Below, one piece after another: positions 22,150 to 63,750 of a DNA stretch of 64,000 nucleotides. Numbering within the stretch: position 1 is the stretch's first letter; each line of letters starts with the position of its first letter. Under the pieces are notes generated by a model. That model saw only the letters and a list, made by a program, of their open reading frames with translations. It searched no databases and was not told the DNA's origin. This stretch comes from Octopus vulgaris. Taxonomy: Eukaryota. The stretch spans positions 171,926,001 to 171,990,000 of the forward strand of contig OX597815.1 of assembly GCA_951406725.2 (NCBI GenBank), read 5' to 3'. The position numbers and the translations under genes are program-made.

Positions 22150-22710
22150 TTTTAGAGTATGTAATTTATGATTCAAACATAATTGCAGAATAGTTATAGG
22201 GATTAAGAAATAATACATTAAAGTCTCTTACAGCTGTTTCTAGACTAGCTGAAGATGTGAAGCATGTGTCATTGAGTAAAGATTTCCATGTAAGCCAACT
22301 ATCCGTCTTCAGAGAGGGAACTAGTAACTAACTTCTATCTTTTATCAAGAATATTCCTTGGTTCGTCAACAATGGAACTGCTAACTGCTATTATCGTTTA
22401 CTAGAAATTTACTAGATTTTAATTTTTCAGTCATGTAACTGATAACCACTATTAATTTTCTCTAAGGATGTTTCTTAATTCTTCACTGAACTGGTAACCA
22501 CTAATGTCCTTATTAAAGATATTCAGTGATCCTTTCACTCCAAAGATGGAATAATTGACTTGCATGGAAACCTTTGCTCTATGACATATGTTCCACATGC
22601 TCAGCTATTCTAGAAACACTAGTAAGAGACTTTATTCAGTATTTCTTAATCTTTTATTTACTATAACCACTCTACAGTTATGTTTGAATGATAAATCACA
22701 TGCACTAAAG
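22150..22710. mobile_element. Fold-back element, Penelope-like relic
   Basis: About 22150-22320 is a diverged reverse complement of about 22530-22710. Confidence 0.75.
22225..22316 (-). ncRNA. Type I hammerhead ribozyme motif
   Basis: CUCU CUGAAGA [CGGAUAGUUG...CAGCUAGUCUA] GAAA CAGCUG UA AGAG. Palindromic stem III and a GUA site. Confidence 0.8.
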
Positions 22711-30399: not shown

Positions 30400-31810
30400 G
30401 TGGATAGGACATATAATACCTTCTTTTAGCTTTTTAGGAAGTATACCACTTGCAAGGAAACTTTGGGAAAGATTTTTTTGTCCCTGGGAATCTTGTTTGA
30501 CAGTGTGCTGGCCTTTCTTTCTGGGACATATTTAGTGCATATAGCTTGCACTATTGACAGATCAATGTCTTGCATACACAGAATGTTGAACCAGTTTTGT
30601 TTGAGGATTTATCTCTTTGCAGATCAATTCCCACTTCGCTTTATGGAAATTCAGGTTGGATAAGACTCAAGTTCTGATAGGATAGATACCAGCAGTTTGC
30701 ACAGGACCATACATAGTTAGTTCAACAATGTTGTGGTCTGAGAGTGCCATTGGTGTAACCTTCCCTTTATTTGTGAAGCATAGGTCCAATATGTTGTTTC
30801 CCCCTGGTTGGCCTGAGTATCACATGCTCCATGGACAGCTTATTAGTAAGTTCAAATAATGACTGTACATGCTTTTGTTCATGCAGTGACATCCCAGAGA
30901 GGATGTGGCCTTCTGACCATTTGACATATGGGTTGTTGAAATCACCCAGGAATCTAGGTTTGTTAATACCTCTTTAATGTATTTGAGGCTATCCTCAAAT
31001 TTTCTATCATATTTTGTGGTATTTGGCGAACGATATATTGTGCATATAGCTACATCAGCTTGCTTTACATGTATTATTAAGGTGTCACAAACTGAGTTTG
31101 AATGTGACAGAGATACAAGAGGTATGATGTCTTCACAGATGTACATAGCAGCTCCACCTTGGCTTTTTTATCTTCTGTCTGTACGAAATACAGCGTACCC
31201 TGGCATGTGCACTACCACATCTGTTACATCAAGAACTAGATGCGTTTCAGTGAGTGCCATACATATTGCTTGATTGCATGTAGCAAGTGTTTTTAGATAG
31301 AGAATTTTACCTCTGCTGCTGAGTTGTAGCAAACCCCCAATATTCAGTAGGAATATGGGTGCGATATCGGGGTAGGTGTTAGTGGTGGCATCCTGGGCCT
31401 CTCACGGTTTCATGCATTGGAATGCATGGCTTTGAGTTTGCATCCTATGCATCCATGTCAGCTGCTGTACTATCTTCTGGGCCATGTTCAAAAAAGACTT
31501 GTTCGATTGCTGCAGTTCATACAGCCTCTGCATATTGCCTTTTGAGGGGTGCAGAATGCATGTGGTGATCTCTTTTCTTGCTCTTTTCAGGGGGGTTTCT
31601 TCCAGCTGGTGCAGTATTTTTCTGCAGATCCATGTTTGATGATTTCCCTCTATATTTTTTCTGATTTTGTTTCAAGTTTCCTTGCTTGTTTTTCTCATAA
31701 GTTTGGTAAGTTTTGGGATGTGCAAAGCTGCAGCCCTTTCCTGTTTCTCCATGCCAGCAGGTACCATTTAGGTAAAATTTACATCCAACCTAGGCTCTGT
31801 CCATTTCTAT
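30400..31810 (-). pseudogene. LINE (CR1/L2-like) 5' part: ORF1 Cys/His knuckle plus APE endonuclease
   Basis: CKFYLNGTCWHGETGKGCSFAHPK, then IFLLNIGGL..MALTETHL..PGYAVFRTDR..GGAAMYI..ICTIYRSPN..NILDLCF, with stops and frameshifts. Confidence 0.8.
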
Positions 31811-33844: not shown

Positions 33845-34830
33845 ATTAGGTTGGCAACTATGTTCCCACCGTTTTTTTAGATTTTTAGAAATCACCCGAT
33901 TTCAACTCAAAAAATTGATCCAACCAAGCTCTCAATTCTGCATCAGTATAGAGCAAAACTCCATGTATTGCATTTGAAATATATCAAAAGACGTGTAAAT
34001 CCGTTGGTGCCAAATCAGGAGACTACAGCAGGTGTGGCAAGCAATTCGTAATGGATAATCCCTTCCCAGTCCCACCATACACACAACACCGTTTTACGCA
34101 GATGAAGATCTTGTTTCACGCACGGTGTCACTTGTTTACCATGGCTAAACCATTCCTTACGCTGCTTAATGTTGATGTACAGACACCATTTTTTGTCGCC
34201 AGTAATGATTCAGTAAAGAAATTGTTGCTTGTGTTCATGAGTTGAGTGGTGAGGAGCAAGCAAACCAGTGGAGATTGTGGCTTGTTGATTTTTTTTGTTG
34301 TCACTTAAAGCATGTGGAACCCATGCTCCATACTTCTGAACCTTTCACATCGAATGAAGATGCTTCTCTATAGCAGTGTGGGAGCATTCCATTTTCTCTG
34401 CCAGTTCCCTTGTCATTTGACAAGAATTTTCATGCAAAAGTTGGTTTAATCGTTCTTCATTGAACTCAAGTGGACGGCCAGAATGAAGTGTATCTTTGAG
34501 ATCAAAATTTCCATTTTTGAACTTGGCATACCAGTCACGAGCAGTTCTTTCAGCTATGGCACCCTTTCCGTACACAGCACAAATGTCGTAAGCAGCTTTT
34601 GCAGCCTTGGAACCTTGATTAAAAGGAAAAACAAGGAGGTGTTGAAAATGCTCGTTTTTCTTAACTTGACATTCCATTTTAATAATCTGAAAATAAATGA
34701 AAATTAACTAGAAAAAAAATCAGAATAGATTCCAAAATTATTCAAAAATGGAATTCTCAAAAAAATAGATTCCGAAATTTAAAAATGCAATAAATTCCAA
34801 AATTAAAAAAACAACGGCGGGAACTTAGCT
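33845..34830 (-). mobile_element. mariner element with pseudogenised transposase
   Basis: TIRs TAGGTTGGCAACTATGTTCCCACCG / CGGCGGGAACTTAGC. HTH region ICAVYG..ERTARDWYAKFKNGNFDLKD..SGRP, plus AWVPHAL-like and VATKNGV/TGDEKW-like regions. Confidence 0.9.
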
Positions 34831-48107: not shown

Positions 48108-48180
48108 AATGCAGGACTGGTTTCTAACTCTTCAAATACGTTTGACACCGAAAAATTGATTAGTCTTCATCAGCTGCATT
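48108..48180 (-). ncRNA. Type I hammerhead ribozyme motif
   Basis: AAUGCAG CUGAUGA AGACU...AGUUA GAAA CCAG UC CUGCAUU. 7-bp stem I and a GUC site. Confidence 0.8.
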
Positions 48181-49204: not shown

Positions 49205-49706
49205 AAATACCCTCTTCATTCATGGGAGTTATTCATTTTTGTAACAAGGAAAAATAGCAACATCGTATTGCCAGGAAATTCATTGTATGCATGAGTATTT
49301 GAAAAAGAAGCAACCCAGACTAGTGAATAGAGATGGCCCAATCTTGCCCCACAACAATGTACATATTCACACTTCTCAAGCTACAGCCCAAAAGTTGCAA
49401 AGCCTGAATTATGAGATTTTGCATCATCCTCCCTATTCCCCTGATATCTCTCCTACTGATCACCCCTTATTAAAGCATTTTGAGCTTTTCATAAGCAATA
49501 AAACCTTCTTAAATAGAGAAGAGGTAATTGAAGCATTCGGACAGTTTATCACAGCTAAAGGTGAATTTATTTTTAAAGATGAAATATACGACATAGAGAA
49601 ATGTTGGGTAAACATAAATGAACATGGATCAATCAGTTCTCAACACCTCTGGAACATTTTATTGTTACCTTTCAAATATGACATTTCATGTGAAACAACC
49701 TAATAT
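49205..49706 (+). pseudogene. mariner transposase C-terminal fragment
   Basis: LVNRDGPILPHNN..H...LNYEILHHPPYSPDISPTD. TIR-like end CAACCTAATA. Confidence 0.85.
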
Positions 49707-51952: not shown

Positions 51953-52069
51953 ATGCCGTAATCAATTTTTATATGCTACAGTTCTTCAATGGAAGCTCTC
52001 CCTTGACTATCCAGTATCTCAGATAGAAAACAAAAACAGCATAGAAAAAACGCTTATCGTTCTTTCCTA

Positions 52070-53449
52070 ATGTTTACAATGACATCTCCTCTTGATAAAA
52101 ATCTTTCTGCAGTCTCATCACCAGACTCTGCATTCAGTGAAGGTTCTATGAATGATTTTGATTTTGAAGACAATTCCCAATTTGAAACTTTGATAAGTCA
52201 AATAATGTACAATTCCGAAGATGTACAGAATGATATGATGAGTTATTTTCAGTCAGAAACACCCTCAAGTGAAGAGATTGCTTCATTTGACGTTGATAAC
52301 TTCTTCAAATCTGATCTCATCAATGATGACTTCTTTTCAGGTGATCCAAACACATCTATTTGCACCTCTGTATACCATGAAAATCCCAGTGTATTTGAAA
52401 ACAAATTAAAACCTGTTTTTGATGACATTGCCTTCTCTTCCCGAAACATTTCAGATGCCACTGATAATCAATTATCACTAGGTGAAATAAACAATGCATT
52501 TGATCAGGCTTTTGATCATGCATTTGATCAGCCATTATTCGGTAATCAATCTGAACTAATTGAATCAAATTACTTTAATGACAAAGATGATCCAGTTTCT
52601 GTATTTTCTGATAATCAGAAGAATCCTGAACCAACTTATTTGTTTCCAAATTCCTCCCTTTCCACTTCTATATCTTCCAGTTTACCGTCATATCACACAA
52701 AATGTCAAAAGCTAAATAACTGCTTTCAAGAATGTGAAAATAAATTTTGTAGCGAGCCTAATTTAGGGAAATATGCAGCAAAATGTAATTCAGTTCATGC
52801 AAATCTCCATGGATATTTTAGTGAGAAGCAAGGGGATAATTGTTCCTCTGCTCAAATGCATTTGTTGTCTCCATCTGACTCATCTTACGGCATTGATAAT
52901 TCATTCAACTACAATCAAACCAAAAGTTCAAAAACCTTTAAAAAGAAGGACGTGTTTGCAATACCTAAATCCCCAAATGTTATTTCAAAGACAAGCTGTC
53001 TGCAAAAAGTTCTAACAGGTCATTTGTCATGTGCATTGTCACCTTCTTCTTTCAATTTTCCACAGCATCAGCCAAGAAATTTGCAATCAGGTGCATTCCC
53101 AAACAAACCTGATAGCCGATATTTCAGCTATATGCAGAGTTTAAAACATAAACAAAGTGATAAACAGCTACACATTTCCAATTCGAAAAAGAATGCTTCC
53201 AACAATGGAAATTCTCCTAAAAGAGAGAATGTCTCTGAATTAGAGAAATATTTACGCGGAATTATCCCAATGGGTAAAGACAGTACTGGTTTGTCTTATT
53301 TGAGTGATGCCTCATCAAAATTAAACCATATGAAAAAAAGCAAATCTACATTTCTGTATAAACTTTTGACAGGTGAAATATCTCAAGAACTATATAGTGA
53401 GATTGATTACAAGCTCCGAGAAACAGAGAGAGCAAATCTAGCCTCCTGA
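52070..53449 (+). CDS. Uncharacterised 459-aa acidic/Ser-rich protein with LxxLL-like boxes (possible transcriptional coregulator)
   Basis: Uninterrupted non-repetitive 1.38-kb ORF in AT-rich DNA. Acidic-hydrophobic N-terminus and motifs LQKVLTG, LEKYLRG, LYKLLTG. No TE domain recognised. Confidence 0.85.
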   Translation: MFTMTSPLDKNLSAVSSPDSAFSEGSMNDFDFEDNSQFETLISQIMYNSEDVQNDMMSYFQSETPSSEEIASFDVDNFFKSDLINDDFFSGDPNTSICTSVYHENPSVFENKLKPVFDDIAFSSRNISDATDNQLSLGEINNAFDQAFDHAFDQPLFGNQSELIESNYFNDKDDPVSVFSDNQKNPEPTYLFPNSSLSTSISSSLPSYHTKCQKLNNCFQECENKFCSEPNLGKYAAKCNSVHANLHGYFSEKQGDNCSSAQMHLLSPSDSSYGIDNSFNYNQTKSSKTFKKKDVFAIPKSPNVISKTSCLQKVLTGHLSCALSPSSFNFPQHQPRNLQSGAFPNKPDSRYFSYMQSLKHKQSDKQLHISNSKKNASNNGNSPKRENVSELEKYLRGIIPMGKDSTGLSYLSDASSKLNHMKKSKSTFLYKLLTGEISQELYSEIDYKLRETERANLAS

Positions 53450-62415: not shown

Positions 62416-62676
62416 ATGGTGGTGGTGGCTGTTGATTCAGGTGAGTGTCAAGGGTTTTAAGTCAAGTGTAACTTACACAACACCACAATGACTCACTAGC
62501 AATACCAAGGATCTCGTAGACAAGCAAAACAAAATATCAGGGTCAGCAGCAGGTTGCATAAACGAGTTAGCCTTCTCTTTGAAGAATATCTTAACAAAGA
62601 ACAGGAGTCCTTCACTGCCAGTAGGTTTACTGCAACCTCAGACACCAGCCCAAGTATTTCTACACACATACATATG

Positions 62677-62712
<36 letters not shown>

Positions 62713-62870
62713 TATACATATGTGAAATAGAAAGATGAATAATCTTGTTGCAGATTAATCAAAAGTTTAACCGATACCTTGGTAGCAAAAATCACAGCAG
62801 AAGACAGCACGGTTGGAGGTACAACCATATGGTGTTGCAACCGTGCGTTGGTGCAGATAATTGAATTTTA

Positions 62871-63163
62871 ATATTATTAGTGAATTGAAGAAATGGAGTT
62901 GAACGAAGATTGAACAGAAATCGTTTTATTTCATTCTACACGTGTTTCGAAAGGCACAATTTACCAAATTCCGATTGAATAATGAGACCATATTGTGTCT
63001 TTCTCTTCTATTCCTATTTCTTCCTGAAGAGAAAGACACAATATGGTCTTATTATTCAATCGGAATTTGGTAAATTGTGCCTTTCGAAACACGTGTAGAA
63101 TGAAATAAAACGATTTCTGTTCAATCTTCGTTCAACTCCATTTCTTCAATTCACTAATAATAT
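62871..63163. mobile_element. Young fold-back element (arms about 138 bp), Penelope-like relic
   Basis: 62871-63008 is a near-perfect reverse complement of 63026-63163. Confidence 0.9.
63015..63107 (+). ncRNA. Intact type I hammerhead ribozyme motif
   Basis: UAUUUC-UUC CUGAAGA GAAAGACACAAU...AUUGUGCCUUUC GAAA CACGUG UA GAA-U-GAAAUA. Predicted cleavage after 63097. Confidence 0.88.
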
Positions 63164-63184
63164 ATATATACATATATATATATA

Positions 63185-63750
63185 TCATCATTTAATGTCT
63201 GTTGTCCATGCTGGCATAGGTTGGATGGTTTGACCAGGCTGGCACACTGGAAGGTTGCCCCAGACTTCAGTTTGATTTGACATGGTTTTCTATGGCTGAA
63301 TGCCCTTCCTAACATCAACTACTCTGAAAGTGTAATGTGTGCTTTTATGTGACACCGATATCTGTCACAACTGTGATTTTGCTTGGCTTGATGGGTCTTC
63401 TCAAGCATGACATAATGCCAAAGATCTCAGATATTACCTCCATGAGGCCCAACACTCGAAAGGAACTCAGCCACTTTGCCTCCGTGAGGCCCAATGCTTG
63501 AAAGGTGTTCTTTATGTGCCACCAGCATGGGTGCCAGTTACCATGATTATGATTTCACTAGGTTTGATGGGTCCTCTGAAGCACAGTACATTGCCAAATG
63601 TCCCAGTCACTAGTTACTGCCTCTATGAGGCTCAAAGTTCGAAGATCATGCTTCACCACCTCATCCCATGTCTTCCTGGGTTTACCTCTTCCACAAGTTC
63701 CCTCCACAGTTAGAGATTGGCACTTCTTTACACAGCTGTCCTGGTCCATA
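63185..63750 (-). mobile_element. RTE LINE 3' end with SINE-like tail
   Basis: MDQDSCVKKCQSLTVEGTCGRGKPRKTWDEVVKHDL. Confidence 0.85.

Follow-up and report, generated by a model that had tools for sequence, protein, structure and literature searches.

The inverted repeat near the end of the window (the whole stretch of 64,000 nucleotides of Octopus vulgaris DNA analyzed here) is one 5'-truncated, head-to-head insertion of a Penelope-like element (PLE) stub. A young, endonuclease-bearing (EN+) PLE very probably entered a TA microsatellite in this truncated, head-to-head form, with both strands of the cut target likely priming reverse transcription on the same sense RNA. The observed parts of this account are the family membership, the (TA)n ends, the presence of one short and one long arm in each pair, the spread of 5' ends, and the covarying hammerhead. 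Positions in the element are counted from the C of the core box CUGAAGA (e0), which places the predicted ribozyme cut between e73 and e74. The features of the insertion were as follows, in window coordinates.

62660..62722, no strand: left part of the (TA)n-rich target microsatellite (sequence; 120 of 121 arm ends in the sample of sister insertions abut (TA)n)
62719..63008, minus strand: long (L) arm, e2 to about e291, cut short at its 5' end within the hammerhead core (differs from the single copy L089 at 4 of 286 nt)
62719..62870, minus strand: tail of about 150 nt, in the long arm only, corresponding to the following unit's 5' UTR in a tandem copy and ending about 55 nt before the ATG (L085 junction)
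62871..63163, no strand: 138-bp fold-back from the overlap of both arms (self-comparison, folding)
63009..63010, no strand: 2-nt filler at the head-to-head joint (window arms end at e2 and e-13, with an insert of 2)
63011..63163, plus strand: short (S) arm, e-13 to e139, with the whole hammerhead (2 mismatches in 153 nt to L089)
63015..63107, plus strand: type I hammerhead of the PLE pseudo-LTR (motif reading, folding, covariation in related families; cleavage predicted)
63164..63186, no strand: right part of the (TA)n target (sequence)

The inverted arms were identical at 137 of 138 positions and folded into a hairpin of -233.5 kcal/mol (z = -31.7), whose 17-nt loop is composed of the 2-nt filler and 15 nt of the element. 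No palindrome was found at the joint. As an earlier note on this DNA had read from the sequence, the left arm stops at GAAGA, and only the plus strand carries a whole core because the left arm lacks C3-U4. The note had also taken the arm pair to span 62871 to 63163. This holds for the fold-back, but the full extent is larger: the left arm continues for about 150 nt on the minus strand to approximately 62719-62723, where the insertion (about 62720-63163) meets a second (TA)n tract.

A Pfam search for a host gene, which covered 150 open frames (from 222 in the window, 149 of the longest, with one added), gave nothing near the insertion site. A 480-codon open frame about 9 kb upstream (52007-53446, plus strand), possibly a large exon of the host, is Ser/Asn-rich with LxxLL-like motifs near its end and matched nothing in Pfam. 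Pieces of a mariner-type transposase were found at 34348-34707 (minus) and 49245-49700 (plus) (HTH_48, E 9e-18; weak DDE_3), and a weak CCCH zinc-finger match occurred at 31520-31789 (minus) in a short frame that then stops.

The short arm contains the CUGANGA, GAAA, and NUH core together with three helices. The core boxes were located at 63024-63030 (CUGAAGA) and 63086-63089 (GAAA). Stem II pairs 63031-63042 with 63074-63085 over 12 bp with one A-C mismatch, a bulged U separates 3 bp from 6 bp in stem I (63015-63023 with 63098-63107), and helix III is formed by the palindrome ACACGUGU at 63089-63096, which provides only 2 bp in a monomer. A GUA site is present, with cleavage predicted after 63097. 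The complete core, 12-bp stem II with one mismatch, palindromic stem III, GUA site, and extended stem I that the earlier note had described were each located where it had placed them. In 91 of 202 full arms, a variant disrupts a single base pair in the extension of stem I.

The folding stability of the isolated motif was ordinary (z = -0.27), with a stem II pair probability of about 0.05. In the folding model, the active fold of the monomer was disfavored by 4.5 kcal/mol (63009-63115), and by 10.4 kcal/mol when the rest of the arm was included. This fits the published PLE hammerheads, as a lone metazoan example did not cleave as a monomer (PMC4209133) and the green anole example required its protein (PMC11167929). 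Rfam at its gathering score gave no match anywhere in the window. An alignment of five sequences from three related families, a set both small and interrelated, revealed changes on both sides in six of the 12 stem II pairs, while 88% of the cells were paired. The core boxes were kept in all sequences, and the helix III palindrome was retained through a swap of CG to UA. The covariation score was reached by none of 500 shuffles. By this comparison, the hammerhead, whose cleavage is predicted, belongs to the element itself, and related families carry compensatory changes in it.

The motif shares a long helix II, a short palindromic helix III suited to dimers, and G10.1-C11.1 with the minimal type I hammerheads of metazoan PLEs (PMC4209133). 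It differs from them in its 12-bp helix II with a 31-nt loop and, in the present reading, in lacking an extra base between positions 9 and 10.1. The minus strand of the window carries two further hammerhead-like motifs from different families, with cores at 48173, where the helix III palindrome is broken, and at 22312, where a CAGCTG palindrome is intact.

A first look at the genome (G000) gave 1086 candidate matches to the arm and 992 exact matches to one 33-mer of it. The family is young as judged from divergence, since the window arms differ from L089 at only 4 of 286 and 2 of 153 bases. Assembled contigs guessed to be RNA cover the region of the family, and contigs cannot show RNA ends. 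In longer copies (L089 and L095), the arm is preceded by a 3' UTR of about 700 nt and, further upstream, by an open frame of 908 codons. This single ORF carries RT motifs followed by C-terminal GIY-YIG-type motifs, and included SDKT, FDIASFYPSI, GLYRDD, plus a GIY-YIG-type domain at the C terminus with CNLC and CPH. The motifs were read by eye against a published alignment of the Hydra clade because Pfam gave no match on either the ORF or its 3' part. A PDB sequence search with the protein returned nothing meaningful, and its Atlas look-alikes included GIY-YIG and RT clusters. In the tandem copy L085, whose unit is 3675 bp, the 3' UTR, hammerhead, and tail lead into the next ATG, and the arm region is therefore a pseudo-LTR (pLTR).

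The element is, by its sequence features, an EN+ PLE: it combines RT and GIY-YIG in a single ORF with a partial tandem pLTR, an inverted 5'-truncated copy with a one-ended tail, and a hammerhead motif in the pLTR. Judged by motifs read by eye, it is closest to the Hydra clade, and it was filed as Hydra-like and not as a member. In common with Hydra clade PLEs, including Hydra-1_Obim (PMC8557442), it has a C-terminal endonuclease, DKT in place of DKG (SDKT in the protein P0001), GLYRDD, CxxC and CxH around conserved E and N (by eye, CNLC..E..N..CPH in most copies), a (TA)n target (120 of 121 arm ends), and a hammerhead of the same build. In contrast, the RWK position reads RIRWL, where RW is kept and K is absent, and the CxCX5C linker is absent from P0001, which has a long Ser/Asn-rich stretch instead. 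The unit is also longer (3.68 kb, compared with less than about 3 kb in that clade), the protein exceeds most of its top relatives by about 200 amino acids, and the hammerhead sequence differs from that of Hydra-1_Obim.

The Ser/Asn-rich stretch recalls the asparagine-rich inserts of rotifer Penelopes (PMC3846280). In P0001 (L089:4401-7112), long in-frame stretches rich in Ser/Asn/Gly follow the RT and also occupy the RT-EN linker, in place of the zinc-finger linker of Hydra elements. That linker was proposed to guide (TA)n-type targeting (PMC8557442), and the P0001 family keeps (TA)n targeting despite the replacement. A non-LTR retrozyme, which consists of non-coding, head-to-tail monomers bounded by hammerheads, was considered and rejected, as the parent element is coding and the window copy is head-to-head. 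Other PLEs were also encountered. These included related families with diverged, covarying hammerheads, often beside copies of the window's family (L085:1-1660 on the minus strand, L245, L254, and L251-L253), another family with the RWK motif in tandem (L093:4608-6788, minus strand), and a Naiad- or Neptune-like fragment (L031:4383-5300).

Sister insertions were surveyed in an unselected sample, the first 100 listed places among the 992 33-mer matches, which represented 70 insertions. Of these, 48 were clean head-to-head pairs, 20 had one arm only within the fetched DNA, and two were complex. Every one of the 48 pairs joined one short arm (3' end at e127-142, mostly e139) to one long arm (about e287-291), a strictness with a P of about 2e-12, and all but one of the 121 arm ends abutted (TA)n. 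The same rule held in a separate set of short pairs found by gapped patterns, at least 86 among the matches listed (90 in total) and with a few loci also among the 48: all 86 were short plus long, 84 by script and two by inspection. The complex locus L063 contained a short plus short pair and an extra arm in an adjacent TA tract.

The 5' ends varied widely. Whole hammerheads were found in both arms of 19 of the 48 pairs, in one arm of 15, and in neither arm of 14, while an arm ended inside CUGAAGA in three. The truncation inside CUGAAGA in the window is not special, since truncation points are so widely spread; it is one draw from this range. In 10 pairs the long arm ended within the tail and had hardly any sequence in common with the short arm. 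In 22 pairs the short arm extended further 5' than the long arm. The 5' ends of the two arms lay within 5 nt of each other in 10 pairs, compared with a shuffled mean of 1.8. Both arms also carried the same subfamily allele in 116 of 117 cases at e79, 160 of 161 at e111, 126 of 126 at e131, and 51 of 54 at e27, where independent arms would be expected to differ in about 58, 69, and 51 cases at e79, e111, and e131, respectively. These counts came from 169 pairs of mixed and partly selected sets in which residual duplicates are possible. In the short-pair set, 11 of 86 joints fell on the palindrome TTTCGAAA and three of 86 on ACACGTGT. At one locus (L113), the arms both start at e73, and between them lies about 550 bp of GC-rich inverted sequence foreign to the element, which may reflect a template switch at the cut site.

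A preferred 5' end pointed to the nature of the template. In the unselected sample, 17 of 121 5' ends fell at e-99 to e-85, and 67 copies genome-wide begin at e-93 after a non-reference base; 29 of 30 inspected e-93 matches were true 5' ends. A tally of the listing placed a G before e-93 in 41 of the 67 copies, compared with six of 48 control ends (P = 1e-7). Copying of a 5' cap is known from LINE-1 work to leave an extra G. The e-93 ends and the extra G suggest a likely main template: a capped sense RNA, left uncut by the ribozyme, whose start lies 93 nt ahead of the core, with the start site and the cap origin of the G both inferred from DNA only. Such a template agrees with findings for the anole element (PMC11167929) and goes against an antisense model (PMC3846280). 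Among the titles and abstracts found, none reported a cap-derived G or run-off at the cut site in PLE insertions, a weak negative in a search that covered few subscription papers.

Two priming events on the RNA are needed to explain short arms that reach further 5' and long arms that stop in the tail. The RT-GIY-YIG protein would nick both strands of the (TA)n tract. On a capped transcript with its start at e-93, one strand would then prime at the proximal site, and priming from the second would fall about 150 nt further toward the 3' end. The two cDNAs would stop independently of each other or run off the 5' end of the RNA, and would be joined by microhomology or short filler. In the window, the long cDNA would have stopped at e2, inside the core, and the short cDNA at e-13. 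In LINE-1 twin priming, two target strands likewise prime on one RNA and a 5' inversion results. The present case differs in that the second site is fixed and the cDNAs usually overlap, leaving an inverted duplication.

One RNA copied twice best explains the allele sharing and the correlated 5' ends, although the shared alleles could alternatively reflect one subfamily active at a time or conversion between arms. The 20 one-arm insertions among the 70, together with the two complex loci, one of which has the short plus short pair, count against two priming events. The palindromic joints and the shared alleles would also be expected if one cDNA or an antisense template folded back on a palindrome and copied itself, as in a published self-priming model (PMC3846280). 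A copy made in this way cannot hold sequence that is missing from the first arm, yet nearly half of the short arms extend further 5' than their partners and 10 of the 48 long arms end within the tail. The extra G at e-93 speaks for a capped sense template, and the window joint has no palindrome. The data therefore disfavor self-priming, the antisense model included, which fails for about half of the pairs and is unlikely as the general explanation, while it could still have made some of the symmetric palindromic joints. Less probable still, at only a slim chance, is the meeting of two independent insertions, or of two different RNAs, at one TA tract. The strong preference of the family for (TA)n and the extra arm in the tract adjacent to L063 would allow it, but the strict short plus long pairing, the direct joints with no target DNA between the arms, the correlated 5' ends, and the shared alleles refute its independent version. 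A protein dimer carrying two RNAs of one source locus could still give such pairs.

The two-priming account may extend to the ribozyme itself. Fifteen arms in 14 insertions start exactly at e74 (L179 and L180 counted as one insertion), after four substitutions and four deletion-like cases were dropped from 23 rows. No general excess of 5' ends was seen at the cut, where the count of 15 at e74 compares with seven at e71, 11 at e78, and 15 at e62 (30 inspected of 38, with L339 dropped for a 1-nt deletion). In eight of the 14 e74 insertions, all with different flanks, the partner arm ended at e72-76 without microhomology, compared with none of 33 at the three control positions, where e62 cannot see its palindromic partner. 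A second symmetric cluster of ends, with eight 81/81 joints, was present at e79-82. Because only partner symmetry distinguishes e74 and this second cluster is symmetric as well, trimming or stalling within stem I is a live alternative source of the symmetry. The eight symmetric insertions give a weak hint of cleavage in vivo and not a demonstration. It is plausible, at somewhat less than even chances, that the hammerhead cleaves the element's RNA in vivo and that each insertion arises from a single RNA molecule copied two times. Most pairs would then derive from RNA that is capped and uncut, with run-off at e-93 and a G left by the cap, and the 3' product of the ribozyme would be the source of a minority, both cDNAs running off at the cut.

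The earlier note had suggested that the upstream antisense arm sequesters the ribozyme as a built-in off switch, which could let such insertions persist in genes. The physical part of this idea stands: in the folding model, the active fold lies about 116 kcal/mol above the ensemble when the upstream arm is present, so a read-through RNA would be predicted to bury the ribozyme in the 138-bp duplex. That the truncated arm is a selected switch is very doubtful. Sequestration is overwhelming in the model, and exactly one whole hammerhead remains in 15 of the 48 pairs, as a switch would have it, but the truncation points are spread widely and hit the core in only three. The layout is general to PLEs, including Naiads without canonical hammerheads (PMC8557442), and copies that have one arm and an unpaired hammerhead persist as well. 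Lone PLE hammerheads are nearly inactive in vitro, being inactive as monomers (PMC4209133) or dependent on the protein (PMC11167929), so a switch is probably unnecessary for a solitary copy. Nothing shows selection for a switch; the antisense arm with its broken ribozyme, and the silencing of the ribozyme in read-through RNA, are likely by-products of copying and not a designed switch.

The inverted arm is the standard layout of PLE insertions (PMC8557442, PMC3846280, PMC4209133). Inverted pLTRs (PMC8557442, PMC3846280) and opposite-strand hammerhead pairs 100-700 bp apart in metazoan PLEs (PMC4209133) are already in print. The insertions described here share with those of other EN+ PLEs (PMC8557442, PMC3846280) the partial-tandem pLTR with its hammerhead, the head-to-head inverted 5'-truncated copy, the tail on one end only, and palindromes or microhomology at the joints. 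They differ in a tail of about 150 nt, compared with 30-40 nt, and the short plus long rule, the allele sharing, and the extra G were counted here. The anole Poseidon element in vitro (PMC11167929) likewise uses two internal RT start sites that bound the tail, an AT-rich target, both strands cut and extended, and uncleaved RNA as the main template. In the octopus family, by comparison, about 150 nt separate the start sites, which lie upstream of the ATG, with one of each used in every pair. Run-off at the ribozyme cut, which was not seen in the anole RNA-seq, is also possible.

The window locus itself is ordinary, and the significance is carried by the mechanism at the level of the family. Three papers (PMC8557442, PMC3846280, PMC4209133) state as open both what PLE hammerheads do in vivo and how the head-to-head inversions arise. 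The sister copies offer a hint about the copying of these elements. With insertions in the hundreds that are nearly identical, this young family yields predictions at the level of single bases, namely a capped start at e-93, a single use of each of two priming sites per insertion, and a minor template that would end at e74.
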